A stretch of DNA of 64,000 nt from Candidatus Woesebacteria bacterium GW2011_GWB1_39_10 (GCA_000993205.1 LBVU01000003.1:161008-225007); one strand, 5' to 3'; positions 15,027 to 61,689 are shown, counted from the stretch's first letter. Made by a program: numbers and translations. Notes: generated from the letters alone by a model not told the origin.

Positions 15027-15039
15027 GGATGTTTTCTTA

Positions 15040-27545: not shown

Positions 27546-27554
27546 TGGTATAAT
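27546..27554 (+). promoter_or_regulatory. extended -10 promoter element (TGgTATAAT) 6 nt upstream of the ATG, giving a probable leaderless transcript
   Basis: tggtataat at 27546-27554; ATG at 27561. Confidence 0.35.
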
Positions 27555-27560
27555 TTAGCC

Positions 27561-27854
27561 ATGACAATTCCTTCTTTTTTGCAAACATATCTCCCTTCCT
27601 ACGACATTAAAAATCTTGACGGAAAAGATGTTTCTGTCGCAAATGAAATTATTACTAAAGTTCTAAATTTGGGGGATGAAAAAGCTGTTTCCTGGGTTTT
27701 TGACAACTACACAATAGATAAAATACGCGAAGTAGTGGGTAATCCAAAAAAAGGTGTTTGGAACGAGGAGTCTTTAAATTATTGGATGAGCATCCTCAAG
27801 ATTGATCAGGTTCGTGAGAAAAATAAAGCTATTTTAAACATTAACCCTGTATGA
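27561..27854 (+). CDS. small protein partner (putative antitoxin) of the AbiEii-like nucleotidyltransferase, pair 1
   Basis: 97 aa from the ATG at 27561 (ORF-track frame from 27501); overlaps the downstream gene by 4 nt; paralogous to 37230..37496 (shared ..I.E.VLN.G...Y.I..IR.....LNY pattern). Confidence 0.45.
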   Translation: MTIPSFLQTYLPSYDIKNLDGKDVSVANEIITKVLNLGDEKAVSWVFDNYTIDKIREVVGNPKKGVWNEESLNYWMSILKIDQVREKNKAILNINPV

Positions 27855-28489
27855 TTTACAAAAATATTTTAAGCGAAAAACATTTGGAAGTTTTAAAAAA
27901 ATTAAAATCTCTTCCAAAAGGAACATATATGGCTGGGGGAACCGCTTTGGCACTTCAATTGGGACACAGAACCTCCTTGGACTTTGATTTTTGTACAAAA
28001 GAACACTTTGAAACTGAAATTGTTTTAAAAAGTTTTCAACAAGACATACCTAACATAAAAATTGAAAGAGTTGCAAAAGATACACTTATTCTTGATGCGG
28101 ACGGAATAATCGTTTCACTTTTTTATTATCCCTACGAACTCATACGGAATTTGGTATCGTTTGAGAAAATAAACCTGGCTTCAACAGAGGATGTTGCCGC
28201 AATGAAAATAGTGGCAGTGTCTATGAGAGGGAAAAGGCGTGATTTTATTGATGTTTATTATTTATTGCAAAAATTTAGCCTTGAAGAAATCGTAAAATTT
28301 ACAATTGAAAAATATCCAAGCTATCAGCCGATGGTTATTCTTAAGGGTCTTATTTATTTTAAAGATGTCGAGGAAGAAGATTTTTCAAGGGGAATAAAAG
28401 TTTTTGATAAAGATTTTTCTTGGGAGAAAGTTAAGAAAAAGATCTTTGAAGAAGTAGAAAAGTACCAGGCTTCAATAGCAAATATTTAG
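27851..28489 (+). CDS. nucleotidyltransferase of the AbiEii/AbiGii toxin family (type IV TA-like), pair 1
   Basis: LEVLKKLKSLPKGTYMAGGTALALQLGHRTSLDFDFCT, the AbiEii N-terminal nucleotidyltransferase signature. Confidence 0.65.
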   Translation: MIYKNILSEKHLEVLKKLKSLPKGTYMAGGTALALQLGHRTSLDFDFCTKEHFETEIVLKSFQQDIPNIKIERVAKDTLILDADGIIVSLFYYPYELIRNLVSFEKINLASTEDVAAMKIVAVSMRGKRRDFIDVYYLLQKFSLEEIVKFTIEKYPSYQPMVILKGLIYFKDVEEEDFSRGIKVFDKDFSWEKVKKKIFEEVEKYQASIANI

Positions 28490-28490
28490 A

Positions 28491-28893
28491 AATTAGTAGT
28501 TAGAAGTTAGGAATTAGAGAGACTTTTAACCAACCCCGACAGCATTTTCGATATCTCCTCGTTTCTTTTGATGAACTCTGCAACCTTAATTTTATTAAAT
28601 CCGTTTGTTTCCAAAATTATTTCCAACCAACAATTAACCTCAAAAATTGTTTAAAACTTTTTCGAGAATTCCTGCCATACCCCTCAGCAATGTTTGCGGG
28701 GATCGAGCCAACGGCACGAAAAAGTTGATTAAGTAAAAATTGTTTAGAAATTGGCAGTCTGTAATCCGAAAAGTGTTGAATGATGTCAACCGTTAGTTGT
28801 TTTGATTTTTGATAAACTAGCAGATCTTTGTATGAAGTAATTGGCACCTTCATATTATACTAATTCCTAATTTCTATTTCCTAATTACTCTAC
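28491..28893. repeat. cassette C: imperfect inverted repeats bracketing the frameshifted four-helix-bundle gene
   Basis: Left aattagtagttagaagttaggaattagagag against reverse-complemented right aattaggaaatagaaattaggaattagta (28858-28893). Confidence 0.45.
28501..28853 (-). pseudogene. four-helix-bundle protein gene copy C, disrupted by a frameshift
   Basis: N-terminal 78-aa ORF 28617..28853 (LFRAVGSIPANIAEGYGRNSRKSFKQFLRLIVGW) stops early; the conserved C-terminal part (...EIILETNGFNKIKVAEFIKRNEEISKMLSGLVKSL*) continues in another frame at 28504-28620. Confidence 0.5.
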
Positions 28894-31875: not shown

Positions 31876-33597
31876 TTAGTTGTGCTTTTGTAATCCCTCT
31901 AGTGCTTTTTCAAGTCCAGCCATGAACCGACCAAGTTTGCCTTGGTCTTTTCCTTGATCTTGAAGTTTCTTGTTATATGCGACTACTTGTTCAATTGACC
32001 TATTCACACCATAGTTCATAGCAGTGCCTTGGGCCGTCCCTCCAACCATCTTTCCAACGGTTCCTGCGGGTCCACTAATAGGTCCAAACGCTTCTCCAAT
32101 CGCAGTGCCATATGCAAACGGCCTGCCGCTTAGAAGTCCTTGAATAACTTCTGTGGCCTTTGGAATAAGAGTAAAAAGAACAAAACTAACACCGACGAAC
32201 AATAACCCTAAAGCGCCACTGCTTCCTATCAAAGGTGGCCACGATTGTGAGGAAACTACGTGTTGGGTTAAATATGAACCAAACAAGAAAGTTGATATTG
32301 CAACACCAAGAGATTGAGTGTCTCCAACAGTAGCCATTGCCATTAATAGAAAAATAAAAGCAAACAAAAATAAAACGCTTGTGACTATAAAGACAGATAA
32401 GTTAGATATAAAACTTTTTAACCAGGCGCCAAATCCCAAACTTGGGACCAAAACCCCAGCAACTATCTGGAGAGGTGCAAAAATTGTTAAAAGCATCAGG
32501 TTTGCATAAGCTTTCAATATTGCCCAAAAGGTTTTAATTGCGTGCCAAATAGCAATAAGAACAACAACGAGAATTATGAAAGCCATAAACACGATTATAA
32601 AAATACCTATTGGGCTAACAAGACCTATAACCAAAAACGCTGTAGCTAGTATACTTATCAAGGCTCCGAAAGTTAAAACAAGTACTATACCCAATACGAG
32701 CGGGAAAACAATTAAATAAAAAATAACTAAACCGAACACACCAAGCTCAGCCCCAGCTACTTTACCTTGAACCAGAAAATTAAAAACTGCCGTTGTTGAA
32801 ACATTTCCAGAAAGATATCCTTTTCCAGCAATGCTCATAAGTCCATAAAAAACGTACATTAAGTCCACCAAAAATCCTGCTATGGCGTAAGAAAATGTAA
32901 CCAAAACAAGAGCCGTAATTATTTTAGGAAGAGCTGATTGAACAGAAATAACTACCTGTGGAGAGAGCTTAACCCTGAACATTATCATGAAGGCAAATAT
33001 TATAGCTACCAACACAAATAATCCAAAAGAAATGTCCCTTGAGGCCCTCCACATATCTTGAACAGGTGAGAGTGCGGTATTAAAACCAAAACCTACCGTT
33101 TGAGCTTTGGCGGTTGGCACAAGGCTATAGTTTTGGACTTTTTCCTTGACATAACCTATTCCTGAAAACGGTCTATCTGTAGCAAAAACCAACCCCCATA
33201 AATTTTGGTCTTGCTGTTTGGGGTTGGCAGCCAAAGCTATTTTCGTTGGAACCGGCGCTTTTACAATAAGCTTGAGGCATGCGCTAATATCTACAGAACT
33301 AGAAAATAGACATTGTGTGACCTGGGGGCTGATAAACAAATTGAGAAAGAACGACAAGGTTCCCCAGAATACCCATTGCACCTGCGCTGCTGTATAACGC
33401 TCTCCAAATATGTCGCTGGGGTTTTTGGTATCGTAAACTTTACCGTAGAAATCGCCAAAACTTTGGTTGTACCAAGTCGGAGCGGAAGAGGGGGCGGGGG
33501 AAGGGGCGGGGCTCTGGGCGTTTACAGAAAAAGGAAACAGCAAAGAATTAAGAATTAAGAATGAAGAGATTAAGATCAAGAGCAGTTTTTTCATCAA
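31876..33597 (-). CDS. polytopic membrane protein with a signal peptide and an extracytoplasmic N-domain, possibly a VirB6/TrbL-like channel component
   Basis: Signal peptide MMKKLLLILISSFLILNSLLFPFSVNA; at least 8 hydrophobic helices in the C-terminal 380 aa. The VirB6 assignment rests on topology only. Confidence 0.4.
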   Translation of the reverse strand: MMKKLLLILISSFLILNSLLFPFSVNAQSPAPSPAPSSAPTWYNQSFGDFYGKVYDTKNPSDIFGERYTAAQVQWVFWGTLSFFLNLFISPQVTQCLFSSSVDISACLKLIVKAPVPTKIALAANPKQQDQNLWGLVFATDRPFSGIGYVKEKVQNYSLVPTAKAQTVGFGFNTALSPVQDMWRASRDISFGLFVLVAIIFAFMIMFRVKLSPQVVISVQSALPKIITALVLVTFSYAIAGFLVDLMYVFYGLMSIAGKGYLSGNVSTTAVFNFLVQGKVAGAELGVFGLVIFYLIVFPLVLGIVLVLTFGALISILATAFLVIGLVSPIGIFIIVFMAFIILVVVLIAIWHAIKTFWAILKAYANLMLLTIFAPLQIVAGVLVPSLGFGAWLKSFISNLSVFIVTSVLFLFAFIFLLMAMATVGDTQSLGVAISTFLFGSYLTQHVVSSQSWPPLIGSSGALGLLFVGVSFVLFTLIPKATEVIQGLLSGRPFAYGTAIGEAFGPISGPAGTVGKMVGGTAQGTAMNYGVNRSIEQVVAYNKKLQDQGKDQGKLGRFMAGLEKALEGLQKHN

Positions 33598-33613
33598 ATT
33601 AAGTTAAAATTTA

Positions 33614-34062
33614 AAAGGCAAAAATCAAAAATACAAGTAAAAATTTAAAATCAATTTTGACCTTTAACTTCAAAGTTTTGACTTTAGTTTTAGTATACCA
33701 GAAGCTATCATGTTTGATAACTCGGTTACTTCTCTTAGTAAGTCTATTGTATCAACTTTTTGGGAATCATTTAAGAGCATCAACCAATATTTGGATTCGT
33801 TTGCACTCTTTAAGGCTATTTCGTGGAACTTTTTAAATTCCAACCTTGAACTGGAAGCGGTTGCTTCAACCAGGTTTGCACCGATACTTGTTCCACTTCT
33901 AACTAGTTGGTCAGAAATCGCCCAAGAACTTCTTTTATTGGGAAGTGTGTCGAGTAGGGCAATCAAATTCAAACTGAATCTGTAACACCTGTCTTGTAAA
34001 TTGCTTTTATAATTTTGATTACTCATATAATTTTTACTTTTGAATTGTATTTTTGACTTTTA
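33614..34062. repeat. cassette D: imperfect about 35-nt inverted repeats bracketing four-helix-bundle gene copy D
   Basis: Left aaaaggcaaaaatcaaaaatacaagtaaaaattt against reverse-complemented right aaaagtcaaaaatacaattcaaaagtaaaaatta. Confidence 0.45.
33670..34026 (-). CDS. four-helix-bundle protein (23S rRNA IVS protein / Avd-like), copy D
   Basis: ISDQLVRSGTSIGANLVEATASSSRLEFKKFHEIALKSANESKYWLMLLND. Confidence 0.7.
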   Translation of the reverse strand: MSNQNYKSNLQDRCYRFSLNLIALLDTLPNKRSSWAISDQLVRSGTSIGANLVEATASSSRLEFKKFHEIALKSANESKYWLMLLNDSQKVDTIDLLREVTELSNMIASGILKLKSKL

Positions 34063-34081
34063 ATTTTTAACTTTTTAGTTA

Positions 34082-36877
34082 TTAATTCCCATGTGCCACA
34101 TCATAAACACACGCATTGTGGCTGGTGTTGCCGGAGTCGCCGTTGTGTTCACAGAAGTCCCCGCCGTTACAGGCCGCCGCAGCGCCCCCACCGGCAGCAC
34201 AACTTCCCGGAAGTGTTGCGCAAGTATAAGTTGAATCGTATGCAGTACCGAATTCCCAAACCCTAATAGAAGTCTCATATTGATCGTCGGACCAGTCACA
34301 GGAAGACGGGACAGTAGAACTCATTGTTATTCCATAACAAGTCTTACCTGTTAGTGCGGAGGACCCTCCCGCATTGTTGTGTAAATCTTTGGCCAAAGCA
34401 AAAGTTGCATCCAACAAATTGCACGGATCGGCTTGGGTTTTAGCCGGGTCTATCCCTTGAAGGTCCGGAAGAATTTCTGTTGCTAAATTGTCCCAATATG
34501 TACCAAAAAAAGGCACAATGCTGTTTATTGGGTCGGCGCTTGCGGAACAATTTGGCAAAGGCTCGCATGTTGCCCAATTTTTTACGTTTTGGTCAGTCCA
34601 GTTATACCTTGTGTAGTTGCCGCTAGCATCTGTGTTAAAAGCCCCTTCGCCGTACATAACACCCAAAATAAGATTGGGCGGAACGCTGTATGTTTGGGCC
34701 GCCGCAGATACGATATCTTTTAAAGATTGTGGAATATTTCCAACTTTAGAACTAACCCCACCCAAGTTACAGGAACCGGAAGCTTTGGGTAATTCTGGCA
34801 ATTCTCCACAAGCAACATTTGTACAATATTGTCCGTTTTGAGGTTGACCCGGCCCAAAACCCTTAGGGCGCAGGGCTTGTTGGATTCCATTTAGGAAATA
34901 ATCTAGAACACTTCCATAATGAGGATAGTAGAGTTGGGCATCAATCGAGTCAGATCCTTGGGCTCCGCCGGGACCTGTCACAGAGCTTTTGTCCGGTTCA
35001 ATTATTCTCCAAAGTGACACGTCTTTATCTGAGGTATTTTTATTCACAGTGTAGGTGGCCTTAGACTGGGCAGGGATATCTGCAATACAGCGGATGGGAG
35101 CACCGACGCCGGTTTTGGGGTAAATTCTTCTGAAGATTGAGTCATTTCCTGCAACTGTGTTGTTCCAAATCTCATTTGCCATGGGTGTTTTTGACACGGT
35201 CGCGACAGTTGCGTAAACATCGGATGAACAATTGGCTTCGAAATGGGTAGTATTACAAGCCGTGTCGTCGCAAACCTCGTGAATGTTTGAGCATTGGATC
35301 TCAGACACATGATAGGAGACGTCAACTTCAATGTGGCTTTTGGGATCATCAAAAGTTGCATCATCCCCGGGGTTACTTCTGCTTGGAATAATTCTACAGC
35401 CACTTAAACCGGAGCTTATGTTGTTTTCAACATCATTCGGAGTGGTTGCGCCGGCACTGTTCGAATCGGCTCTGGGAAGATAAGTATTTTTAAGTAAACC
35501 AGAAAGCTGATAATTTTCTATAGAATGAGCCAAATAAAGCTGAGGGTTGTGAATAATGCTATAACACCCTTGCGGACCGCATTCAATTGTTGCCCTTGGC
35601 GCTTCAAGATGCGTGCCTATTATGGCGTGGGCTCCCTTTTTATCAACATTATTAGCAAGAGGGACGTATTGGAAAAGATCAGAATATACATTGGGAACAA
35701 AAATATTTTCTACACAGGCAACTAAATTTACCACCGGGATTAATATGCAAGTTTTGCCACGCCACTCGTTGTATGCCTTTTGATATAAAGCATCGTTTGT
35801 AAATGGTTTTCCATCTTTGTCGCTCCAGGGGAGTGGGGGGAGGCGGCTGTTCCAATGGTCGCCAACAGACCGTTGGATAATATCTGCGGCGACATTTGGG
35901 AAAAGTACTGTTAGACCATTTACGATATCATTTATTATCGTATTCCAGAAAGAAAGATCCCCGTCCCAGCCTTCTTGTCTGTCGATGGCCGTTCCTAACA
36001 CTCCGCCAGCAGACTGCAATCTGAAGACTTTGTCATTTGCCTTTTTACCACCTCCGTCGTAGCATTCAACCGGAGTATAGGTGCCAACAACAAGCCAATT
36101 TCCGATTAAAAATGGAGCGTTGCTTTTGGCGCAGGCAACAATCTGATTATGATTTTCTGCTTCTGTTACTTGTTCTTCGGTTTCGCTGTCGGTGTAAGTT
36201 ACCTCACTGTTTGCAGAGTTAACTGTTGCAGATCTTGTAGCCTCCTGAATAACTGATGGTAGGAGACGTCTTGTTGGACCGGAAAAGTCGACGGTTCTTG
36301 AAAGACCTTCAGGTGTAGTTGCAGACGCCGGATACTCGGCTCTATTGTCCACTCCGCCCAAATACCAGGCAACATAATCACTCACTTTTGTTCCGTCATC
36401 TATATCACTTGAACTCTGGCTGTTTTTGGTATCGTTTGTATTGCCCAAAATTGGCAATTCGACATTTGTTAAATCAATATCTATTTTTTGGTTTTTGGTA
36501 ATATCTGCCGGGCAGGAATTGGCCTGACCACCACTTTCGTCGCAATAATCAACTTGGACAGTTCCCAATATCACAACTACGTCATTGCCGCACCAGTAGG
36601 TTATGGGAGTGTCTCCGCAAGGAGAAGCTTGATAGGGTCTGTCTGAAGCGTATTCCGGGTCGCTACCCGAAACAGGGTTTCCTAAGAGATCCTTTTCTAT
36701 TTCACAGGGAATCCGGCCGGGGGGGGGAATGGCGTTTGCCGCTTTTGCGGCGGCAGGTAAAAGGTAAAAAGTAAAAGTTAAAAGCGTTAAAAACAGGAAC
36801 AACAGAAAGAAATTAAATATTTTTGAAATTTGGGGCGCAGATTTTGTTTTGACCATAATTTCTGATTCATGATTCAA
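34082..36877 (-). CDS. very large (931 aa) secreted or anchored Cys-rich protein, hypothetical
   Basis: N-terminal hydrophobic anchor FNFFLLFLFLTLLTFTFYLL; many Cys and low complexity; no recognisable enzymatic motif. Confidence 0.5.
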   Translation of the reverse strand: MNHESEIMVKTKSAPQISKIFNFFLLFLFLTLLTFTFYLLPAAAKAANAIPPPGRIPCEIEKDLLGNPVSGSDPEYASDRPYQASPCGDTPITYWCGNDVVVILGTVQVDYCDESGGQANSCPADITKNQKIDIDLTNVELPILGNTNDTKNSQSSSDIDDGTKVSDYVAWYLGGVDNRAEYPASATTPEGLSRTVDFSGPTRRLLPSVIQEATRSATVNSANSEVTYTDSETEEQVTEAENHNQIVACAKSNAPFLIGNWLVVGTYTPVECYDGGGKKANDKVFRLQSAGGVLGTAIDRQEGWDGDLSFWNTIINDIVNGLTVLFPNVAADIIQRSVGDHWNSRLPPLPWSDKDGKPFTNDALYQKAYNEWRGKTCILIPVVNLVACVENIFVPNVYSDLFQYVPLANNVDKKGAHAIIGTHLEAPRATIECGPQGCYSIIHNPQLYLAHSIENYQLSGLLKNTYLPRADSNSAGATTPNDVENNISSGLSGCRIIPSRSNPGDDATFDDPKSHIEVDVSYHVSEIQCSNIHEVCDDTACNTTHFEANCSSDVYATVATVSKTPMANEIWNNTVAGNDSIFRRIYPKTGVGAPIRCIADIPAQSKATYTVNKNTSDKDVSLWRIIEPDKSSVTGPGGAQGSDSIDAQLYYPHYGSVLDYFLNGIQQALRPKGFGPGQPQNGQYCTNVACGELPELPKASGSCNLGGVSSKVGNIPQSLKDIVSAAAQTYSVPPNLILGVMYGEGAFNTDASGNYTRYNWTDQNVKNWATCEPLPNCSASADPINSIVPFFGTYWDNLATEILPDLQGIDPAKTQADPCNLLDATFALAKDLHNNAGGSSALTGKTCYGITMSSTVPSSCDWSDDQYETSIRVWEFGTAYDSTYTCATLPGSCAAGGGAAAACNGGDFCEHNGDSGNTSHNACVYDVAHGN

Positions 36878-36883
36878 GATTCA

Positions 36884-37165
36884 CTATTTTGGCAGCACAA
36901 TATTAAATGTACCAACATCAACTCCTGTGATGGTTTTAATCAGAACCAAGATAAGATAAGAAATTAAGATTATGATTAGTCCTCCTATTGCATAAGTTAA
37001 TGTTTTCTGCGCGCCCTCAACCGCCTTTGGGTCGCCACCGCTGGTTATGTATTTAAACCCTCCCATTAAAAGAAGCGCAAAAAGAGCGATTCCGGCAAAG
37101 CCCAAAAGAGCCCCGACCAGGCTTTGAAAAACTGTTCCTAAATCTTCAATTGTGGCAATTTTCAT
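36884..37165 (-). CDS. small pilin-like membrane protein (putative T4SS pilin, VirB2/TrbC-like), paralogue 1
   Basis: FKYITSGGDPKAVEGAQKTLTYAIGGLIIILISYLIL, two hydrophobic helices around a conserved GGD[PK]xxxExA motif. Confidence 0.5.
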   Translation of the reverse strand: MKIATIEDLGTVFQSLVGALLGFAGIALFALLLMGGFKYITSGGDPKAVEGAQKTLTYAIGGLIIILISYLILVLIKTITGVDVGTFNIVLPK

Positions 37166-37229
37166 ACAATAACAATTCTAAACTAGTAGACAACTTTGAG
37201 CAAGCTCCTTTGTTTGATATACTTAACGG

Positions 37230-37496
37230 GTGGCAAAAACTCGGTTGATACAAGAATTGGTTAAAAAAAAGCCGTATCTTATATGGCATACCAAAAATTA
37301 TGAACATCTTTCTGAGAGAAGTATTGTAGAAAATGTTTTAAATTATGGAAGCTGGGAGGATTATCTCTTTTTGGAAAAAGTTCTTGGTGTAAAGCAACTA
37401 CGCGGTTTTTTTGAAGACATAAAAAATAAAAAAAGGACAAACCTTAGACCTCAAACAATCAATTATTTTAGCAATTACTTCGGAAAATATGCATGA
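37230..37496 (+). CDS. small protein partner (putative antitoxin) of the AbiEii-like nucleotidyltransferase, pair 2
   Basis: 88 aa; overlaps the downstream nucleotidyltransferase gene by 8 nt; paralogue of 27561..27854. Confidence 0.45.
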   Translation: MAKTRLIQELVKKKPYLIWHTKNYEHLSERSIVENVLNYGSWEDYLFLEKVLGVKQLRGFFEDIKNKKRTNLRPQTINYFSNYFGKYA

Positions 37497-38118
37497 ACAG
37501 CACAAATATAAAGAGGTCTTGTCGAAAAAACAAATTGAACTGTTGGGGCTGGTCAAAAAGTTTTCGGATGAGTTTGGGCTGGTCGGCGGTACCGCAATTG
37601 CCATTCAATTAGGTAAAAGAAGATCAGTCGATTTTGATTTGTTTACAACTTCTGATTTTGACAGTGATCACATTAGAAAAATTATCAGAGAAGAATTTGA
37701 AATACAGTCTGTTTTAGTTGAAATTCCGGGGGAACTTACGGTGATTGTTAATGGTGTCAAGCTTACTTTTTGCAAATATCCTTTTAAAATTACCTTTACT
37801 GAGGAATTTGAAGATGTCATTAAAATGCCGGATTTATTAACTCTTGCCGCAATGAAGGCCTTTGCATTAGGCAGACGCTCAAAATGGAAAGATTATGTGG
37901 ATTTGCACTTTATGTTTAAAGAATGTCAGTTTTTAAGAGTTGTAAAAAGGGCAGGTGAACTATTTGGAGGAGAATTTAACGAAAAATTGTTCAGAGAACA
38001 ACTTTCGTACTTTAACGACATGGATTTTTCTGAGGAGGTTGACTATTTGGAAGGCTTTGAAATAAGTGATGAGTCAATAAAAGAAAAACTAAAAGAAATT
38101 AGTTTGCAAAAGGATTAA
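37489..38118 (+). CDS. nucleotidyltransferase of the AbiEii/AbiGii toxin family, pair 2
   Basis: IELLGLVKKFSDEFGLVGGTAIAIQLGKRRSVDFDLFT; paralogue of 27851..28489. Confidence 0.65.
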   Translation: MHEQHKYKEVLSKKQIELLGLVKKFSDEFGLVGGTAIAIQLGKRRSVDFDLFTTSDFDSDHIRKIIREEFEIQSVLVEIPGELTVIVNGVKLTFCKYPFKITFTEEFEDVIKMPDLLTLAAMKAFALGRRSKWKDYVDLHFMFKECQFLRVVKRAGELFGGEFNEKLFREQLSYFNDMDFSEEVDYLEGFEISDESIKEKLKEISLQKD

Positions 38119-38137
38119 AATTTTGAGCAAGCGTGAA

Positions 38138-38479
38138 TTACACTGAGGGGATAGCGAGGGAGAAGATATCGATTTTAAAGAAAGTGTTTATTAAGGCAAC
38201 AATTGCCCATGCTGCAAAAACTATCACAAGCCCGACCAAAGCGGCCGTAATTTGATTTCTGGCGGCTTCTGTTTGGGCTTTATCTCCACCGGAGGCGATC
38301 CAGCGAATTCCACCAATTACTAAAATAAAGAAGAAGACTATTGCGGCGACAACTACAGTAAGTCTGATCAGCGCTGAAACAATTGAAGGAACCGTAAGAC
38401 CACCGAGCTGAGCAAATTGTGTGTTGCTAGGTGGTTGTAAGTTAATCGAGTCGCTTGTAACTGCTAATAAATTTGTCAT
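38138..38479 (-). CDS. pilin-like small membrane protein, paralogue 2
   Basis: IRWIASGGDKAQTEAARNQITAALVGLVIVFAAWAIV. Confidence 0.5.
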   Translation of the reverse strand: MTNLLAVTSDSINLQPPSNTQFAQLGGLTVPSIVSALIRLTVVVAAIVFFFILVIGGIRWIASGGDKAQTEAARNQITAALVGLVIVFAAWAIVALINTFFKIDIFSLAIPSV

Positions 38480-38487
38480 TATGTATA

Positions 38488-38868
38488 TTATTGAATTACC
38501 AACGGACCAATGTCAATAGTCAGAATGTTTAAACCGAAAAACGTTTCTACAACATTTATAACGGCAAATGCTCCCAAAAGAATTACAATTCCGATCACCG
38601 CGCTTGTAATTCTGCCGCGCGCCGACTCAAGCGCTTGTTTATCACCGCCGGAGCTTATCCACTGAACGGCTCCCCAAATGAGCATGAAGAAGAATACCAA
38701 GACTCCAATGACAAACACCAAACCAATAAAGTTTGGGATAAAAGTTGACAAAAAACCGGTTGGACCGGAGGAATAAACACCCTGCAAACCGGGACCAAAG
38801 ATTGGGTTTTGTATTTCGCTACTTTCGTTAGCCCCAGCCAGTAGTTTGTATGAATTAGTTAATAACAT
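38488..38868 (-). CDS. pilin-like small membrane protein, paralogue 3
   Basis: VQWISSGGDKQALESARGRITSAVIGIVILLGAF. Confidence 0.5.
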   Translation of the reverse strand: MLLTNSYKLLAGANESSEIQNPIFGPGLQGVYSSGPTGFLSTFIPNFIGLVFVIGVLVFFFMLIWGAVQWISSGGDKQALESARGRITSAVIGIVILLGAFAVINVVETFFGLNILTIDIGPLVIQ

Positions 38869-39244
38869 TATTGCCCGTTAATACTGAAAATAGAGAAACG
38901 AAATTTAATATATCGGGAATGCCGATTAAATATCCAATAAATCTGATTATGAATATTCCGAATATACAAACCATGAGTCCAATGAGACCGCTCATGATTT
39001 TTTTCCTTGCAGTCTCCAAGGACTGTTTATCCCCGCCAGCGGTCATAAACGCGAAAGACCCCGTAGTCACCAAGAACACAAACCAAATAATTGCGATTAG
39101 CGTAACAAGGCCGATTGCGGAGGAAATGAAATTTGTGAAGACGACACTGGCGTCCATAGCTGGAGCCGTTTCAAGTCCGAGTTTACCAAAACCTTTAAAC
39201 CCTCCGTCAGGGAATATATTTATCTGTGCTAAAGTGTTGTTCAT
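38855..39244 (-). CDS. pilin-like small membrane protein, paralogue 4
   Basis: FMTAGGDKQSLETARKKIMSGLIGLMVCIFGIF; 14-nt overlap with paralogue 3. Confidence 0.5.
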   Translation of the reverse strand: MNNTLAQINIFPDGGFKGFGKLGLETAPAMDASVVFTNFISSAIGLVTLIAIIWFVFLVTTGSFAFMTAGGDKQSLETARKKIMSGLIGLMVCIFGIFIIRFIGYLIGIPDILNFVSLFSVLTGNNVIN

Positions 39245-39591
39245 AGTGTTGGAATAGACGGGCTAAGAATAAAGTCCCAACTGCCAAATACAAATTGTCC
39301 AATCAGGGCGGCTAGAACAAATGCCCCGGCCGAGAAAGCTAATCCTATTATTGTCTGATAAATTTTTGCCCAAGCACCCTCCACTTTTTTGGCATCATCC
39401 CCAGCGGACATAAAGGCATATCCTGCAAGCACCAAATTGAAAAGGGCATAAATTCCGGCGCCGACAATAAGAAACTGAAGCACTTTTTCGATTAGACCAC
39501 CAATGGCGGGGCCTGCGTCTGTTCCATATTGAGAGAGAGCTGTAGGGGCTTTAATTGTTCCAAAAGGATTCGCGTCTGATAAGAGTTTCAT
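39241..39591 (-). CDS. pilin-like small membrane protein, paralogue 5
   Basis: YAFMSAGDDAKKVEGAWAKIYQTIIGLAFSAGAF; 4-nt overlap with paralogue 4. Confidence 0.5.
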   Translation of the reverse strand: MKLLSDANPFGTIKAPTALSQYGTDAGPAIGGLIEKVLQFLIVGAGIYALFNLVLAGYAFMSAGDDAKKVEGAWAKIYQTIIGLAFSAGAFVLAALIGQFVFGSWDFILSPSIPTL

Positions 39592-39888
39592 TTATTGATT
39601 TGGTAAAATTGGAACATTGGTAATATTCCCAACTAATTGTACTATCCAGTAGGATGCAAATACAATAACAAAGCCAATAATGGCACTTGTAACGGTTTTT
39701 TTGGCTTGTTCTGCCTTTTGCGGATCGGATTGCCCCGCGCTTGCAATCATTCCGATCCCGCCCATGATAAAGAAAAATAGGAGGATTAAACCGGAAACAA
39801 CAAAAGCAATATTGAGAAAGAGGGAAACAAGATCTCCTATCTTTCCGATTTCTCCGAAGGGAGATTTGAACATTGCGTTTATATTCAT
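39592..39888 (-). CDS. pilin-like small membrane protein, paralogue 6
   Basis: IGMIASAGQSDPQKAEQAKKTVTSAIIGFVIVFASYWIV; the overlapping 138-aa ORF 39551..39967 in another frame is judged spurious. Confidence 0.5.
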   Translation of the reverse strand: MNINAMFKSPFGEIGKIGDLVSLFLNIAFVVSGLILLFFFIMGGIGMIASAGQSDPQKAEQAKKTVTSAIIGFVIVFASYWIVQLVGNITNVPILPNQ

Positions 39889-39893
39889 AAATT

Positions 39894-40229
39894 TTATTTG
39901 TTAAAAGGTTCACCGAATCCTCCCGTGCCAGTTGATTTAAAAATCTGTGCAAGTAATTGAACGACAAGAAAGGCTGTTATGACTATTACAAATCCAATTA
40001 GAGCGTTGGTAATTTTACCTTGTGCTCCTTGAATGGCTTTTGGGTCACCGCGGGACGTCATCATCTGCAGACCTCCCATGACTAAATAAATTAATAATGC
40101 AATACCGGCGGCTCCAAAAATGTATGGCAATACAGCACCCATTATATCTGCAAGCTTGGAATCCGGACCAAAAGTTGCGTCTGGTAGACCGTTGGTTTGA
40201 ATACTATTTAAATCTAATTGTGCGAGCAT
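39894..40229 (-). CDS. pilin-like small membrane protein, paralogue 7
   Basis: LQMMTSRGDPKAIQGAQGKITNALIGFVIVITAFLVV. Confidence 0.5.
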   Translation of the reverse strand: MLAQLDLNSIQTNGLPDATFGPDSKLADIMGAVLPYIFGAAGIALLIYLVMGGLQMMTSRGDPKAIQGAQGKITNALIGFVIVITAFLVVQLLAQIFKSTGTGGFGEPFNK

Positions 40230-40337
40230 TTATAAAATTATTCTAATTGACGTAATTATACTAGAAAATTGTTCTAATTATTTTAATTATACTAATTATT
40301 CTAAATAATACCCAACACCCAGTTTCCAATTTAGAGC

Positions 40338-40768
40338 AATTAGAAATTAGAATAATTAGGTTAATTTACCCATCTTCTGGTAAATCGAATTAAATATTAA
40401 GTTTAGCTCTTTTGCTTCTGTCCAGATAACTTTTATTTTCTCTTTTTGCCCAGGACAAGCCGTTGCCAGCATTCTTAGAAAATGTTTTGACTCTCTTGCC
40501 TCCTTTTTGCAAATTCCAATTTTATGCTTAAAATCTTTACCACTTTCTGCGTCGTCTGCTTCGCAATAATTTGCACCGACACTTGTTGAACATCTCACCA
40601 ACTGGCTAACTAGGGGGTCTGTAATTATACTTTTGGACAATTCTTTGCAGAACTTAATTACATTTTCTCCAAACTTGGCAGTTCTTTCTTCCAGGTCATA
40701 TTTTTTTGAAGCTTCAGACATTGGTTTTTATTTAGGTCAATTAGGAATTAGAATAATTAGGTTAATTG
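40338..40768. repeat. cassette E: 29-nt direct repeats (28/29 identical) flanking four-helix-bundle gene copy E, plus an inverted partial copy at about 40293-40305
   Basis: aattagAaattagaataattaggttaatt at 40338-40366 and aattagGaattagaataattaggttaatt at 40740-40768; the first copy contains the gene's stop codon; ctaattattctaa at 40293-40305 is the reverse complement of the core. Confidence 0.55.
40356..40721 (-). CDS. four-helix-bundle protein (23S rRNA IVS protein / Avd-like), copy E
   Basis: LVRCSTSVGANYCEADDAESGKDFKHKIGICKKEARESKHFLRMLA. Confidence 0.7.
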   Translation of the reverse strand: MSEASKKYDLEERTAKFGENVIKFCKELSKSIITDPLVSQLVRCSTSVGANYCEADDAESGKDFKHKIGICKKEARESKHFLRMLATACPGQKEKIKVIWTEAKELNLIFNSIYQKMGKLT

Positions 40769-40773
40769 TCAGT

Positions 40774-41166
40774 TTACTTTCCAAAGCCAAACTCATTCAG
40801 ACCTAGTATATCAACTCCTATGAATTTGAGTATAAAAATGGAAAAAATAAGTAAAATCAGGCCGGAAATTGCACTTGTTAAAAGTTCCTGCCCGGCCTTA
40901 AGGCGTTCCGGGTCTCCAGCTGATGTCATTACCATAAAACCGGCATAGACAATCAAAAGGAAGGCAATTCCGCCACCAACCCCAACTGCCCACTTAAGAA
41001 GACTTCCAAGAAACTGTTCCTGACTGCTCAGAACATTAAGGCAACCTATTGCAGTATTTATTCCGTTACCCCCATCGCACATAAGATCATCCGCACGAAC
41101 TGGCATAACAGACAATCTAAGGAGAAACACAAATCCGAGTAAGATGGGTAGTATTTTTTTCTTCAT
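40774..41166 (-). CDS. pilin-like small membrane protein with a cleavable signal peptide, paralogue 8
   Basis: Signal peptide MKKKILPILLGFVFLLRLSVMPVRA, then FMVMTSAGDPERLKAGQELLTSAISGLILLIFSIFIL. Confidence 0.5.
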   Translation of the reverse strand: MKKKILPILLGFVFLLRLSVMPVRADDLMCDGGNGINTAIGCLNVLSSQEQFLGSLLKWAVGVGGGIAFLLIVYAGFMVMTSAGDPERLKAGQELLTSAISGLILLIFSIFILKFIGVDILGLNEFGFGK

Positions 41167-41205: not shown

Positions 41206-41637
41206 ATGGCGGACTATACAAAAAATTTTGACGGTTGGATTGTCAAGAAAAAAAAATACCACTATCAGAAATTGTTACCTCCAATGTTTAAAGAAAGAGA
41301 TATCTGGTGGGTTTCAATTGGGGTTAATGTGGGCTATGAAGAAGATGGCAAACACGATAAGTTTCTAAGGCCCGTTCTGGTACTCAGGAAGTTTAACAGG
41401 GAGTTGTTTTTGGGAATCCCAATGAGTACTAAGATTAAAGATAACCGTTATTACACTCAAGTTACTGTTCAAGACGAAACCGTATCGGTTTTGATCTCCC
41501 AAATTAGAGTTTTTAGCGCAAAAAGAATACAAGACAAACTAGCTGAACTAGATAGGGGTGACTTCAAAAAAGTACAAGATGAAGTAGTAAAGATGATTAC
41601 TTTCTCTCCTCTGCCTAAGCAAAGGAGCCGTGGCTAG
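41206..41637 (+). CDS. PemK/MazF-family toxin-like endoribonuclease, apparently orphan
   Basis: DIWWVSIG...KFLRPVLVLRKFNRELFLGIPMSTKIKDNRYYTQV...SQIRVFSAKRI fits the MazF/PemK pattern; no convincing antitoxin ORF adjacent. Confidence 0.55.
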   Translation: MADYTKNFDGWIVKKKKYHYQKLLPPMFKERDIWWVSIGVNVGYEEDGKHDKFLRPVLVLRKFNRELFLGIPMSTKIKDNRYYTQVTVQDETVSVLISQIRVFSAKRIQDKLAELDRGDFKKVQDEVVKMITFSPLPKQRSRG

Positions 41638-46689: not shown

Positions 46690-47059
46690 GGGGACGATCG
46701 GTTTCGACGAGAGCTCTTTAACAAAACTGCAAGCGGACTTTTATCTGTAGTCCTTAAAAATTGATTAAAAAACAAAAGCTAAATCTTATGATTCAGCTTC
46801 TGATTACGCGGGCAATTTTGCCTTCGCATAATCGGTGTCCTTTAATTTGATTCTCGACCGAATTAAATGGGCATAAACCCGTTCGGGATGCTGTTTGAAT
46901 CTTAACGATTTAAAGATTCACGCAAAAGACAAATAAATCTTACATCGAGCGTTCCTGTTGGCTGGATAAGCTCGATGAAAATTTAAAAACCAAATAAGCT
47001 TGTAGATGTTTTGTTTTAATGTTTTTCGGACGCGGGTTCGATTCCCGCCGTCTCCACAC
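46690..47059 (+). ncRNA. ssrA: tmRNA (SsrA)
   Basis: 5' GGGGACGAUCGGUUUCGACG; 3' tRNA-like end GGACGCGGGUUCGAUUCCCGCCGUCUCCA pairing with the 5' acceptor strand. Candidate tag reading frame from GCU (46778) to UAA (46829-46831) encoding AKSYDSASDYAGNFAFA. Ends are approximate. Confidence 0.8.
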
Positions 47060-56745: not shown

Positions 56746-57894
56746 ATGATTCTATACGAATTTGAAGGAAAAAAACTTCTTTCGGATAAAGGTATTAAAG
56801 TTCCTCCGTTTCAGATTGTGGATTCGGCTACAAATAAGGTCAGAATAAAATTTCCGTTAGTTCTTAAGGCCCAGGTCCTTTCCGGTAAAAGAAAAGATGC
56901 CGGTGGAATTATTTTTGTAAACAAAAAAGAAGAATTCAAATCTAAGGTTAAAAAACTTTTGGGTAAAAAAATAAACGGAGAAGTTGTTACGGAAATACTT
57001 GCGGAGGAAATAATTAAACACAGACGCGAATTTTATTTGGCTTTATCATACGACACTGGTCGCAGTGGACCTGTTTTAACTTTTTCTGAATCGGGAGGGA
57101 CCGGAATTGAAACCAGGGAATCCAAAATTGTTCCATTAAATATCCTTAGTCCCCAAAAAACAAAAATCGCGCTTCCCACAAAAATCCAAAAAATATTACC
57201 CAAATTAATCAAGTCGTTCTTGGATAACGACTTGGTGCTTCTAGAAATTAACCCTCTTGTAATTGATGAAAAAGGAAATGTTTATGCGCTTGATGCCAAG
57301 GTCAAATTGGATGATTCCGCAATCGGACGTCATAAAGAGTGGACTTATTCACCCAGGTCTATCCCCGGTCATAATCCTACAATAAGAGAAATTGCCGCCA
57401 AGAAAATTGATGAAGGTGATTATCGGGGCACGGCGGGGTCCACATATATTGATTTACCGGGGGATATTGCGGTGCTTGCATCCGGAGGGGGAGCCTCGTT
57501 AACTGCGATGGATGCGTTGGTTAAAGCAGGTGGCGCTCCAGCCAACTATACCGAATATTCAGGAAACCCCTCCAAGGAAAAAGTGGCAAAATTAACCAAG
57601 ATTGTACTATCTAAAAAAGGAATAAACGGCCTTTGGGTGGTTGGGGCCATTGCCAACTTTACCAATATTTTTGAGACGCTTACAGGGTTTGTAGAATCAT
57701 TGAGAAACATTAAACCCAAGCCGGAATACCCAATTGTAATTAGGCGCGGCGGCCCGCACGACAAAGAAGCTTTTGCCATGCTTAGGAAAGTTAAGGATTT
57801 TGATTTGCATCTTTACGGTGAGAAAACATCTATCGCCGAGTCGGCTAAAATTGTGTCCCGTCTGGCAAAAAAATATGCATCTACCAAAAAGTAA
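56746..57894 (+). CDS. SucC-like ATP-grasp subunit (succinyl-CoA / citryl-CoA synthetase beta-type subunit)
   Basis: MILYEFEGKKLLSDKGIKVPPFQIV (compare SucC MNLHEYQAK.L....G.PVP), ATP-grasp plus CoA-ligase domains in 382 aa. Confidence 0.6.
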   Translation: MILYEFEGKKLLSDKGIKVPPFQIVDSATNKVRIKFPLVLKAQVLSGKRKDAGGIIFVNKKEEFKSKVKKLLGKKINGEVVTEILAEEIIKHRREFYLALSYDTGRSGPVLTFSESGGTGIETRESKIVPLNILSPQKTKIALPTKIQKILPKLIKSFLDNDLVLLEINPLVIDEKGNVYALDAKVKLDDSAIGRHKEWTYSPRSIPGHNPTIREIAAKKIDEGDYRGTAGSTYIDLPGDIAVLASGGGASLTAMDALVKAGGAPANYTEYSGNPSKEKVAKLTKIVLSKKGINGLWVVGAIANFTNIFETLTGFVESLRNIKPKPEYPIVIRRGGPHDKEAFAMLRKVKDFDLHLYGEKTSIAESAKIVSRLAKKYASTKK

Positions 57895-58777
57895 TTCAAA
57901 ATTCATAGGACAGGGGTTAACAGGAACGGAGGGTTCAACCTCTTTGGCGCACATGCTGGGTTATGGAACAAAGATTGTAGCCGGAGTAACACCGGGTAAG
58001 GGTGGGCAAGAGGTACAAGGAGTACCAATATTCAATACAGTAAAAGAAGCTCTAAAAAAGGTTGGGAAAGTGGATGGAACGGTGCAATTTGTTCCGCCAC
58101 TATTTACCAAAGGGGCAGTGGTGGAGGCAATTGACGCAGGAATAAAATTTATATTAATTGGCGCCGAAAAAGTACCGACAAGGGATGCTGCTGAAATGTT
58201 TGCGCTTGCCAAGAAGAAAAGAGTAACAATAATCGGTCCGAGTTCTGTAGGGATTATTTCTCCTAAAAACAAAATCAAACTGGGCCAAATTGGAGGAGGA
58301 ACTCCGGAGAGGGTTTTTGTTAAGGGCAATATCGGAGTTATATCCAAATCCGGCGGAATGACTTCCGAGCTTGGTTTAATTCTTAAAAATAACGGAATGG
58401 GAGTTTCCTGGGCGGTAGGCATCGGTGGAGACAGAATAATATGTACCGACTTTACGGACTTTTTGATGGAATTAGAACAAGATAAGGATACGAAAGCCTC
58501 GGTCGTTTTTGGAGAACTTGGAGGAAAGTATGAAGAAAAAATTGCCGAATATGTAAGGAAAGGGAAAATAAAAAAACCGGTTGTTGCATTCATTGCCGGA
58601 GAATTTACCAACAAATTACCGAGTGATGTTCAATTTGGTCATGCGGGAGCTATAATAGAAGGGAAGCGTGGTCTTCCTTCGGAAAAAAGGAAGATTTTGA
58701 AAGAAGCCGGAATTTTGGTTGCTGAGAATTTTGATGAGATCCCTGTATTATTGAGGAAGATCCTATCGTCGAGCTGA
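57875..58777 (+). CDS. SucD-like CoA-binding subunit (succinyl-CoA / citryl-CoA synthetase alpha-type subunit)
   Basis: KFIGQGLTGTEGSTSLAHMLGYGTKIVAGVTPGKGG, SGGMTSELG, VGIGGD, phospho-His loop QFGHAGAI. ATG at 57875 overlaps the upstream gene by 20 nt (ORF-track frame from 57773). Confidence 0.7.
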   Translation: MHLPKSNSKFIGQGLTGTEGSTSLAHMLGYGTKIVAGVTPGKGGQEVQGVPIFNTVKEALKKVGKVDGTVQFVPPLFTKGAVVEAIDAGIKFILIGAEKVPTRDAAEMFALAKKKRVTIIGPSSVGIISPKNKIKLGQIGGGTPERVFVKGNIGVISKSGGMTSELGLILKNNGMGVSWAVGIGGDRIICTDFTDFLMELEQDKDTKASVVFGELGGKYEEKIAEYVRKGKIKKPVVAFIAGEFTNKLPSDVQFGHAGAIIEGKRGLPSEKRKILKEAGILVAENFDEIPVLLRKILSSS

Positions 58778-58797
58778 GCTCGACTCCAGGATGACGT

Positions 58798-59463
58798 ATG
58801 ACAAAAACTATCGTACATAAAAATAATTTGCCATATTTTGGAAATGAAAACCTATTGGAAATTGCTCCCAAGAGAAGTTTTGCAGGTATGATCTTTGAAC
58901 TTCTTAGCGGAAAAGAAGCTGATAGTCATCAGCTCAAGGTTTTTGAAACAATCCTCAATACTTCCATAGATCACGGAGAAGAAACCCCATCGGCTACGGA
59001 AACGATTAGGGCAGCAAAAGATGGAAAAACCATAAGTGAGTCCGTTGCTGCCGGAATTTTGCAAATAAACGATACACACGGCGGGGCGATTGAACCGGCG
59101 ATGGCGATGTTTTACGAAATTCGAAATTCGAAGCACGAAATACGAAACTTTGTGAAGGAACAGTTGGAACAGGGAAAGAGACTGTCGGGATTTGGGCATA
59201 GAATCTATGAAGTAGACCCCAGGAGCCAGCTTCTTTTTAAACTTGCCAAAGATGAAGGAATCTCAGATGAATATATAAATTTGGCCCGTGATATCGAAAG
59301 GGAGCTTTTGGAGCAAAAAGGCAAAGTTTTGCCGGTAAATATAGACGGGGCAATTGCAGCCATCCTCTGCGCTTTTGGTTGGGAACCAAAATTGGGTAAA
59401 GCCGTCTTCATCATCGCCCGCACCCCTGGGCTATGCGGACAGTTTCTAAATTCTTCAAAATAG
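58798..59463 (+). CDS. short citrate-synthase-like protein (citryl-CoA lyase Ccl-like / AclA C-terminal domain-like)
   Basis: HGEETPSATETIRAAKDGKTISESVAAGILQINDTHGGAIE and GFGHRIYEVDPRS correspond to the citrate synthase catalytic His/Asp region; only 221 aa. Confidence 0.55.
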   Translation: MTKTIVHKNNLPYFGNENLLEIAPKRSFAGMIFELLSGKEADSHQLKVFETILNTSIDHGEETPSATETIRAAKDGKTISESVAAGILQINDTHGGAIEPAMAMFYEIRNSKHEIRNFVKEQLEQGKRLSGFGHRIYEVDPRSQLLFKLAKDEGISDEYINLARDIERELLEQKGKVLPVNIDGAIAAILCAFGWEPKLGKAVFIIARTPGLCGQFLNSSK

Positions 59464-59554: not shown

Positions 59555-59626
59555 TCCCCTGTAGCTCAATGGTAGAGCAGAATCCTGTTAAGATTAAGGT
59601 TGCTGGTTCGAATCCAGCCGGGGGAG
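59555..59626 (+). tRNA. tRNA-Asn (anticodon GUU)
   Basis: Acceptor UCCCCUG/CGGGGGA, D-arm GCUC-AAUGGUA-GAGC, anticodon loop CUGUUAA, T-arm GCUGG-UUCGAAU-CCAGC, discriminator G. Confidence 0.75.
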
Positions 59627-61105
59627 CAAGTGGCTCCTTATTATAATGTGGTTCTGCCTACGTAAGGTTGCAAACACGGGTGTTTCAACAACTCTTGTAA
59701 TCTCCTTATCTTTGATATAAATGCCCTCAAAGAAGAATCTTAAGTAATGTCTCTTTAGGTGGGGTGGGGCCTCCAGATATGTCTGATGGATATTTCTTGT
59801 AAGAGCAAGAACTTCGTCGACAAGATTTATATCCAGTTTTTGCCGACCCTCCAATTCAACCAGCCGGTCATTAAGATTATTTATCTGTTCCTGAAGTTTG
59901 ATGTGTTGCCTTTTGAAAACATCCCTGCCTATAACACCCTCAACCAGAAGGTCTTCTAATTTATTCCTATGCTTTTCGATGGCTCTTTTTTGATTGACGA
60001 TTATTTGCCTTTCTGATTTGAAGGTTTTTCTTCCGCCTTCGAAGTGCTTTCTAATCTTTTGTCTTACAAGTTCAGTAAATTCTTGGCCGAATTGGAAGTT
60101 TTTGAAGAGATTGGCAACTCTTTTTTCCATGTCCTCTAATTCAATAAACGATCCAGGACAACCACCCGGAGTATAGCAGTGATAGTAACCAATCCGATCC
60201 TTTTTATAACCATTGTGATGGTAATAATGCCATTCTGCGGTCAGTCTGGAGGAGTGCTCCGAACAAAAAACAATTCCCCTTAAAAGGAAATTGTGCTTTC
60301 TCTGTCGAATTAAAAATTGTCTGTGCTTTGCCGCTGTAAGTTGGCATTGGTCGAACAAGGCCTTGGTTATTAAAGGTGTGTGGTTTCCCGTCTTCTCTGT
60401 TCCTCCCCATTTCATTAAACCGTAAAAGAAGGGGTTGGATAGTAATTGTTGGAGGCTGCTATCACAAAACATCTTTCCGTTCCTTGCAGTAAGACCTTTT
60501 GAGAACATCTCCTTCGACAGCCGTACATAAGAGTAATTGCCTGTGGAATATAGATTAAATGTTTCTTCTACCAATGGTGCCGTAATTGGATCAGGCACGA
60601 CTATTTTTTTATTATTCTTCCTTATGTTTTTGTATCCCACTGGAGCCCAACCCGGCCACCATCCATCCCTATACTTCTGCCTCAGAGCATCTTTTGTTCT
60701 TTGTCCGTTGACCTCACTTTCCCATTCGGCTACTGAGGCAAATATATTGCCAATTAGTCCGTTTCCCACGTCTCCACCCTCAACAATGGAAATTAAACTG
60801 ACTCCTTTATTCCTGAACTCCTTTCTTATCCTCGAGAAGTCAGCAACATTCCTGGCAAATCTGTCAATCTTATAAACAATTACAGAATCGACAGGGTTAT
60901 CGTCAACGGCCTTAAGAAGTTTTTGGAATTCCGGTCTCTCTACGGTTCTGGCACTTTTTCCTTCCTCCAAAAAAGCACTCTTTATTTGGTATCCATTATT
61001 TTTGGCATACTCAACACAAGCCCTTTTTTGGTTATCGAGAGAAAAACCTTCCTTAGCCTGTTCATCCGTGCTCACGCGTAAATAGATATAGCAAGCCTTA
61101 TTCAT
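59594..61105 (-). CDS. large serine recombinase (resolvase/invertase catalytic domain plus recombinase and zinc-ribbon domains)
   Basis: CYIYLRVSTDEQAKEGFSLDNQ (catalytic Ser in RVSTDEQ), DSVIVYKIDRFARN, 503 aa, C-terminal Cys/His-rich region. Confidence 0.8.
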   Translation of the reverse strand: MNKACYIYLRVSTDEQAKEGFSLDNQKRACVEYAKNNGYQIKSAFLEEGKSARTVERPEFQKLLKAVDDNPVDSVIVYKIDRFARNVADFSRIRKEFRNKGVSLISIVEGGDVGNGLIGNIFASVAEWESEVNGQRTKDALRQKYRDGWWPGWAPVGYKNIRKNNKKIVVPDPITAPLVEETFNLYSTGNYSYVRLSKEMFSKGLTARNGKMFCDSSLQQLLSNPFFYGLMKWGGTEKTGNHTPLITKALFDQCQLTAAKHRQFLIRQRKHNFLLRGIVFCSEHSSRLTAEWHYYHHNGYKKDRIGYYHCYTPGGCPGSFIELEDMEKRVANLFKNFQFGQEFTELVRQKIRKHFEGGRKTFKSERQIIVNQKRAIEKHRNKLEDLLVEGVIGRDVFKRQHIKLQEQINNLNDRLVELEGRQKLDINLVDEVLALTRNIHQTYLEAPPHLKRHYLRFFFEGIYIKDKEITRVVETPVFATLRRQNHIIIRSHLLPRLDSNQQP

Positions 61106-61281: not shown

Positions 61282-61300
61282 TTCGTGTCACATCCATCCG

Positions 61301-61552: not shown

Positions 61553-61689
61553 ACCTAAATAAGTTCCTATTGATAACCATTTTTTGTGTTGCTATCCTAT
61601 CCATACAAACAGGACGTTGCCACTAAAACGGCGCAACCTATGCGTAAAATAGAGGTTCTTAGTTTCTAGCTGGAGCCTCTATTTTTTGG

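Follow-up and report, generated by a model that had tools for sequence, protein, structure and literature searches.

A set of eight small genes encoding predicted membrane hairpins was characterized in Candidatus Woesebacteria bacterium GW2011_GWB1_39_10, within a 64,000-nt stretch of DNA (LBVU01000003.1:161008-225007, hereafter the window), where they lie on the minus strand between positions 36884 and 41166. These open reading frames (ORFs) probably make up the complete "pilin" operon of a type IV secretion system (T4SS), with their products serving as non-redundant subunits that would co-assemble into one T4SS-associated structure. Comparison of the sequences with those of relatives identifies the eight as an ancient, fixed set, with purifying selection in all seven of the orthologue pairs in which it is measurable. 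Arrays of this type have already been published, and the locus in the window is a further instance.

Eight paralogous hairpin genes

The labels A to H follow the order of transcription of the array on the minus strand. An ORF listing over 35.5-42.5 kb returned eight minus-strand ORFs of 93-130 aa, at the coordinates that an earlier sequence-only reading of this DNA had assigned to them: A (40774-41166, 130 aa), the first gene of the operon; B (39894-40229, 111 aa); C (39592-39888, 98 aa); the divergent copy D (39241-39591, 116 aa), with the loop sequence AGDDAKKVEGAW; E (38855-39244, 129 aa); F (38488-38868, 126 aa); G (38138-38479, 113 aa), the best-conserved copy; and H (36884-37165, 93 aa), the last and shortest. 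The block from B to G is tightly packed, its five junctions measuring +8, -14, -4, 0, and +5 nt. The packing described earlier stands, but the overlaps of 0-14 nt then attributed to all six genes resolve into two overlaps (E shares 4 nt with D and 14 nt with F), one abutment, and two short gaps. The stop/start overlaps suggest that translation of the array genes is coupled. The stop codon of H is 6 nt upstream of the start of a 931-aa ORF.

Profile hidden Markov models (HMMs) built from seven copies at a time recovered the omitted eighth at E = 3e-13 to 4e-25 (3.1e-13 for D and 2.9e-18 for E), whereas the best unrelated ORF among the 686 stop-to-stop ORFs of the window reached only E ~0.3-0.8 with the same models; exactly eight copies are therefore present in the 64 kb. 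The view that all eight share one design is thus borne out, both by leave-one-out scores of E <= 3e-13 against ~0.5 for the next ORF and by the two-helix hairpin found in each. Alignment of the paralogues, a check that the sequence-only reading had proposed, gave pairwise identities of 12-38%, or 16-37% (mean 27%) after realignment. Of the conserved core motif initially described, the S-G-G-D-P/K loop was recovered, but just two residues, an Asp and a Gly, are identical in all eight.

A hydropathy scan resolved each copy into two hydrophobic segments around a polar loop that carries the S-G-G-D-P/K motif. The AlphaFold2 model of copy C, calculated from an alignment of C with its homologues and the seven window paralogues, is a helix-loop-helix (helices 11-52 and 56-90; predicted local distance difference test score, pLDDT, 80.5), so that scan and model agree on a hairpin with the topology of a two-helix pilin. 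The loops hold 2-4 Lys/Arg residues and the N-tails are neutral or acidic; together with the secretory-type leader ahead of the N-tail of A, these features fit a predicted orientation in which both ends of each hairpin face outwards and its basic loop lies within the cell. A is alone among the eight in possessing a third, N-terminal hydrophobic segment (residues 3-25, with KKK in its n-region and a VRA|DD site), which is followed by a short two-Cys ectodomain and then the hairpin. This signal-like segment, with its MKKK start, hydrophobic run, and VRA|DD site, is kept in orthologues, in support of the cleavable signal peptide assigned earlier to a distal copy; cleavage itself is a prediction.

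A profile search bore out the T4SS-pilin assignment. PF18895 (T4SS_pilin) is the best Pfam match for all eight copies, of which six (A, 36.2 bits; B, 38.0; C, 43.7; F, 33.8; G, 34.1; H, 27.7) exceed its curated gathering score of 26.6 bits. D (13.9 bits) and E (17.2 bits) score below this cut-off and are tied to the family by the leave-one-out HMMs and by positional orthology. When run as a full HMMER scan, the eight-sequence profile matched 90,005 cluster representatives at E <= 1e-3, 24,795 of them at E <= 1e-10.

An ordered set conserved across species

In CP066686.1, a complete Ca. Woesebacteria genome (locus L001) with 78-87% nucleotide identity to the window over the array region, and in four other long contigs (L004-L007), eight pilin genes of matching length lie contiguously between SpoIID and a large Cys-rich ORF. 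Over six genomes, all 240 best cross-genome matches paired proteins that occupy equivalent positions; F and H have such positional orthologues, as does B in every genome compared. Mean identity among orthologues is 65% for A, 59% for B, 67% for C, 69% for D, 52% for E, 54% for F, 78% for G, and 73% for H, against 26-28% among the paralogues of a single genome. Woesebacteria have abundant homologues of C, with identities of 63-92%.

A wider survey, in which one genome per GTDB species was scanned with G orthologues and the pilin ORFs were typed by position-specific HMMs, yielded 42 loci. The order ABCDEFGH was found in 26 species-level genomes with full coverage, and no change in copy number was observed within the clade. 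In Microgenomatia that are more distant (Levybacteria, Daviesbacteria, and others), arrays comprise 4-11 genes, as seen at L039 and L042-L048, where the A-type gene with its signal peptide usually leads and an H-type gene usually ends the series. A four-gene array from another metagenomic lineage (L050, 486-2755) displays a Sec-type signal peptide on every gene; in the window only A has one.

Between the window and CP066686.1, dN/dS (the ratio of nonsynonymous to synonymous divergence) ranges over 0.02-0.16 for seven copies and is 0.022 for G, values that are approximate given a dS near saturation; E is saturated and provides none. Conservation differs by region, with mean orthologue identities of 40% in the N-tail, 75% in helix 1, 83% in the loop, 73% in helix 2, and 49% in the C-tail. 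G is conserved at 96% in the loop and 98% in the second transmembrane helix, while A combines a core conserved at 83-92% with a Cys-rich N-extension or ectodomain of ~25 to 130 residues. The loop signature is conserved within each paralogue type and particular to it. At the DNA level, leaving aside the physical overlap of E with F, no tract common to two paralogues exceeds 12 nt, and the pilin genes contain no simple-sequence, homopolymer, or phase-variation repeats and no invertible elements. The sequence-only reading had taken the expansion to eight divergent copies as suggestive of antigenic or host-range diversification; an order fixed in at least 26 other species, the low dN/dS, and the lack of recombinable tracts argue against that view.

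Cassette insertions that split the array

Relative to CP066686.1, the window contains three insertions, located between A and B, between G and H, and between SpoIID and A. The first (40329-40767, minus strand) is a 23S_rRNA_IVP/bAvd-like cassette whose gene (40356-40721) matches PF05635 at E = 3.1e-13. It is bracketed by 38-nt direct repeats (40329-40366 and 40730-40767) that are 92% identical, with none expected by chance. CP066686.1 and L004-L007 lack the cassette, their A and B genes either abutting or overlapping. The second (37193-38131, plus strand) is an AbiE-type toxin-antitoxin cassette composed of a DUF6922-like gene (37230-37496; a weak match of 17 bits) and AbiEii (37489-38118; Pfam E = 9.7e-12), which confirms the AbiEii module noticed earlier beside one of the copies. 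This cassette is flanked by duplicated GCTTGCTCAAA(A/G)TT, a motif that is single-copy in CP066686.1 (11753-11766); judged against that genome, the ~13-nt duplication resembles a target-site duplication. The third is a PemK/MazF-like toxin gene (41206-41637, plus strand; PF02452, E = 1.1e-12).

Since the eight genes are contiguous in relatives, the "six plus two" layout is secondary and its gaps are cassette insertions; the description of six genes in an array with two distal copies is true of the window but not of the original arrangement. The AbiEii association is likewise incidental, given that the AbiE cassette is an insertion relative to CP066686.1, and the idea that the pilins are functionally connected to the AbiE, PemK, or IVP genes was rejected because the cassettes are insertions absent in relatives. 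The L038 array is also interrupted by kilobase-sized insertions.

Similar cassettes occur elsewhere in the cluster. Four PF05635 23S_rRNA_IVP/bAvd-like genes are found inside it (25521-25963, 27040-27482, 33600-34081, and 40329-40767), three of which are bracketed by AT-rich inverted repeats of 31-53 nt with 75-79% complementarity, and the fourth (40329-40767) by the 38-nt direct repeats. They look like mobile cassettes of the intervening-sequence type settling in the intergenic spacers of the T4SS operon. At 28488-28889, inverted repeats of 30 nt (83% complementary) surround 342 nt without an annotated gene; the geometry is that of the IVP cassettes, and the element may be an empty or decayed one. 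A second AbiE-type module (DUF6922-like plus AbiEii) is located at 27501-28489.

The surrounding T4SS cluster

The host is a Woesebacteria-like Patescibacterium, and the locus is a Gram-positive-type (MPF-FATA-like), conjugation-independent T4SS. The cluster is chromosomal, with flanks that include yidC, rnpA, dnaA (13635-15026), dnaN (the dnaA/dnaN span being 13635-16392), smpB, the transfer-messenger RNA (tmRNA), dnaG, and rpoD. No Pfam match to a relaxase or a VirD4-type coupling protein was obtained among the scanned ORFs of at least 100 aa in the 64-kb window. All relatives examined have a common gene order, running from SpoIID through the eight pilins, a large ORF, and a polytopic ORF to, further on, PrgI, the TraC-like gene, and VirB4.

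The large ORF of the window (34082-36877, minus strand) encodes the 931-aa protein, which is acidic, has an N-terminal anchor, and contains 30 Cys. Its position directly downstream of H indicates that it probably belongs to the same operon, and a syntenic orthologue of 784-920 aa follows H in CP066686.1 and L004-L007. It is a candidate surface or cell-wall-active partner of the pilin-like proteins. Next on the minus strand is a 573-aa protein (31876-33597) with a signal-like N-terminus and ~6-7 hydrophobic segments by hydropathy, syntenic in relatives and, from this topology, a candidate VirB6-like protein. Farther along are a PrgI (VirB3-like) membrane protein fused to a CarboxypepD_reg-like domain (25967-27028, minus strand), with two hydrophobic segments and a PF12666 score of 27.6 bits against a cut-off of 27, and a 228-aa TraC-like/TrsD-like protein (24835-25521, minus strand), 87% identical to an L004 protein that bears PF26593 (TraC-like). 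Pfam (E <= 5) and phmmer searches of the PDB returned nothing for the 931-, 573-, 978-, and 228-aa ORFs.

The VirB4-like T4SS ATPase (21187-24762, minus strand; TraG P-loop, E = 3.5e-24; AAA_10) is encoded 12 kb downstream of the array on the same strand. It is interrupted by an intein (Intein_splicing, E = 7.8e-18) with a homing endonuclease (LAGLIDADG_3, E = 4.2e-19). The protein is 1191 aa long with its intein, compared with ~611 aa in a relative.

Fused multi-hairpin proteins

The 150 top-scoring profile matches are all polypeptides with 2-14 hairpin modules by domain count, in a ranking by total score, which favours multi-hairpin proteins. These catalogue proteins (P0121-P0270) consist of 2-14 tandem PF18895 modules and extend to 1775 aa; in some, one signal peptide and a Cys motif precede the first module. 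P0121 has six hairpins behind a single signal-like peptide, and P0127-P0129 present hairpin types in A-B-H order. By a Rosetta-stone argument, such fusions, if real, would imply that several hairpins stand side by side in one assembly.

A proposed heteromeric structure and its alternatives

According to the interpretation favoured here, the eight hairpin proteins would be made together, and the machinery encoded downstream (VirB4, the VirB3-like protein, and the polytopic membrane protein) would take them from the membrane to build one heteromeric envelope-spanning or extracellular structure, a pilus or conduit, for host-cell contact. The copies would then fill distinct, non-redundant roles instead of acting as interchangeable antigenic variants. 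The strongest candidate for a subunit at the distal, host-facing end is A, and the neighbouring 931-aa protein may perhaps face the host as well. A more specific version is advanced only tentatively: the eight could be the fixed parts list of one heteromeric tube or pilus with A as its host-contact subunit, and the polyproteins of 2-14 hairpins could be single-chain versions of it.

If true, this would amount to a conjugative-pilus-like structure of many distinct subunits, in a monoderm, that serves an essential epibiotic function and not DNA transfer. Patescibacteria depend on host cells, and the T4SS with its pilin series is essential in the one genetically tractable species. The ordered orthogroups, the variable tails and A ectodomain, and the fusions together lead to the expectation that all copies are expressed together, that each is required, and that they co-purify in one structure; A and the adjacent Cys-rich 931-aa protein would be candidates for host specificity.

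Several points weigh against a single structure assembled from all eight. Co-expression, stoichiometry, and co-assembly are inferred, dS is close to saturation as noted above, and the inserted cassettes might have uncoupled A and H from the B-G block. A promoter and terminator scan over 33.5-41.8 kb gave counts equal to the shuffled expectation, so that operon boundaries could not be read from it. No fusions were present among the 300 pilin ORFs of the fetched Microgenomatia loci, and searching metagenomes with P0121 turned up only an array of separate genes at 38% identity, which leaves the protein catalogue as the sole source of fusions. A 2025 review (PMC12857230) treats a Patescibacteria T4SS pilus as a possibility that has not yet been observed. 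No link to conjugative pilins emerged at the sequence level: none of the eight copies matched PF04956 (TrbC/VirB2) at E <= 1, and hhalign of a C-centred alignment with Agrobacterium tumefaciens VirB2 (a query sequence 98% identical to the UniRef entry and scoring 63 bits on PF04956) returned a probability of 0.2%. An hhalign comparison of 48 pilins with 120 VirB2 homologues was topologically in register yet not significant (probability 0.4%, P = 0.16); the VirB2 set is narrow (Rhizobiales), and a remote link may exist through other TrbC branches. A PDB search with the eight-copy profile produced spurious membrane and designed-protein matches only (E >= 0.16) and no conjugative pilin, and fold searches returned only generic helical hairpins, ATP synthase subunit c among them. 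The VirB2/TrbC-like assignment of the sequence-only reading is therefore retained in part: PF18895 membership, hairpin topology, and T4SS context support a T4SS pilin, but homology to VirB2/TrbC (PF04956) was not recovered. "VirB2-like" is a statement of architecture and context, as membership in the VirB2/TrbC family is not demonstrable here.

Those generic fold matches, with subunit c included, also fit an alternative in which the hairpins form a membrane-resident T4SS ring, tube, or scaffold around the translocon, comparable to ATPase c-subunit rings, with no extracellular filament. Gram-positive-type T4SSs are generally without pili (PMC10633639, PMC12102498), the set size is fixed at eight, and fusions of up to 14 or more hairpins suit a closed oligomer better than subunit-wise growth of a pilus. 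Contact with the environment is nevertheless suggested by tails that are exposed and variable and by A's secreted, Cys-rich ectodomain; moreover, the Pfam family is named and used as a pilin family (an annotation only), and the homologues in Ca. Southlakia epibionticum have been called pilins by structure-based annotation (PMC10633639). We consider such a scaffold rather unlikely.

A shade less likely still is that the copies are interchangeable pilin variants, used singly or mixed, whose repertoire would confer antigenic or host-range versatility. The high divergence of the paralogues (12-38% identity), the 4-11 genes of arrays in more distant Microgenomatia, the hypervariable length of the A ectodomain, and the predicted exposed N- and C-tails, which vary most between species (40-49% identity against 83% in the loop), would all suit a variant repertoire. 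Strict one-to-one orthology in a fixed order over at least 26 species, with no copy gained or lost in the clade, does not, nor does a dN/dS of 0.02-0.16 in the seven computable copies. Each paralogue type keeps its own loop signature, the overlapping junctions imply co-expression, and the array contains no common DNA tracts, invertible elements, or simple-sequence repeats through which copies might be switched. The variation of tails between species leaves room for host adaptation, among orthologues rather than paralogues. Finally, it is very improbable that unrelated small membrane proteins (holin-like, immunity, or type IV pilus prepilin-like) sit beside T4SS genes by chance: the adjacent toxin-antitoxin genes that might suggest this are insertions absent in relatives, the linkage from SpoIID through the pilins to VirB4 is kept in all relatives examined, the family is specifically PF18895, and each copy has two hydrophobic helices, not one, and no class III prepilin motif. 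Holin and immunity proteins had also been considered as candidates and were rejected on the conserved T4SS synteny.

Comparison with known systems

A search of 3,035 Patescibacteria genomes with PF04956 and PF18895 identified 441 arrays with 2-11 pilin genes apiece, particularly in Microgenomatia and Saccharimonadia, and a within-array identity of 25% on average and 54% at most; the systems are often near dnaA and mostly without a relaxase (Quinonero-Coronel et al. 2025, PMC12102498). The window locus resembles these in its tandem PF18895 genes, its mean paralogue identity (~27% against the 25% reported), its Microgenomatia lineage, its size of eight, and its chromosomal position near virB4, PrgI, and TrsD-like genes and dnaA, with no relaxase found in the window. 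There is no categorical difference; what is added here is that the genes constitute an orthologous, order-fixed set under purifying selection, split by cassettes in the window. In Ca. Southlakia epibionticum, a six-pilin T4SS series was found to be essential by transposon sequencing (Tn-seq; Wang et al. 2023, PMC10633639).

A versatility or antigenic role for such arrays has been proposed by analogy with the VirB2 paralogues of Bartonella and Anaplasma (PMC12102498), and our comparative result argues against it. As in those tandem arrays, the window has divergent pilin-like genes at a T4SS locus of a host-dependent bacterium. The Bartonella and Anaplasma arrays are read as lineage-specific amplification for antigenic variation, whereas the window set is fixed in number and order and offers no substrate for recombination.

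VirB2/TrbC pilins (PF04956; the Agrobacterium T-pilus, RP4 TrbC, and F TraA) are similar in being small, in having a pair of hydrophobic helices connected by a short loop that is polar and basic, in being encoded with a VirB4 ATPase, and in their predicted topology with both termini outside. They differ in lacking significant sequence or profile similarity to the window copies, whose loops are ~7 residues longer and carry the S-G-G-D-P/K motif. Seven of the eight window copies have no cleavable leader, there are eight paralogues where VirB2/TrbC systems have one major pilin, and the window host is a monoderm with no pilus observed.

By analogy only, a working model is offered by type IV pili and type II secretion pseudopili, with their major and minor subunits: these too comprise several non-redundant paralogous small subunits encoded together, which would divide tip, initiation, and shaft roles within a single fibre. 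The fold and the machinery differ, however: type IV pilins combine a single N-terminal helix with a globular domain and have a class III signal peptide, and the window copies show none of these features. An identity as type IV pilus prepilins was rejected on the same grounds, the class III motif (G|F/M-x-x-x-E) being absent from all eight copies, which have two helices and no globular domain. The "Pam pilus" of a 2026 preprint on CPR (candidate phyla radiation) bacteria was set aside as an unrelated immunoglobulin-like pilus; the preprint does not mention T4SSs.

Other features of the window

Three adjacent genes at 56746-59463 encode ATP-citrate-lyase/citryl-CoA-like domains (ATP-grasp_2 with Citrate_bind; CoA_binding with Ligase_CoA; and the C-terminal part of Citrate_synt), which is unexpected in a reduced Patescibacteria genome. 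Beyond them, a large serine recombinase (59594-61105) abuts tRNA-Asn (59555-59627), with a helix-turn-helix or replication-like gene nearby (61992-62312), and the interval 59555-62312 may be the edge of an integrated element. RNA searches located the tmRNA (148 bits) at 46690-47059 and a LOOT RNA motif (83 bits) at 63629-63737.

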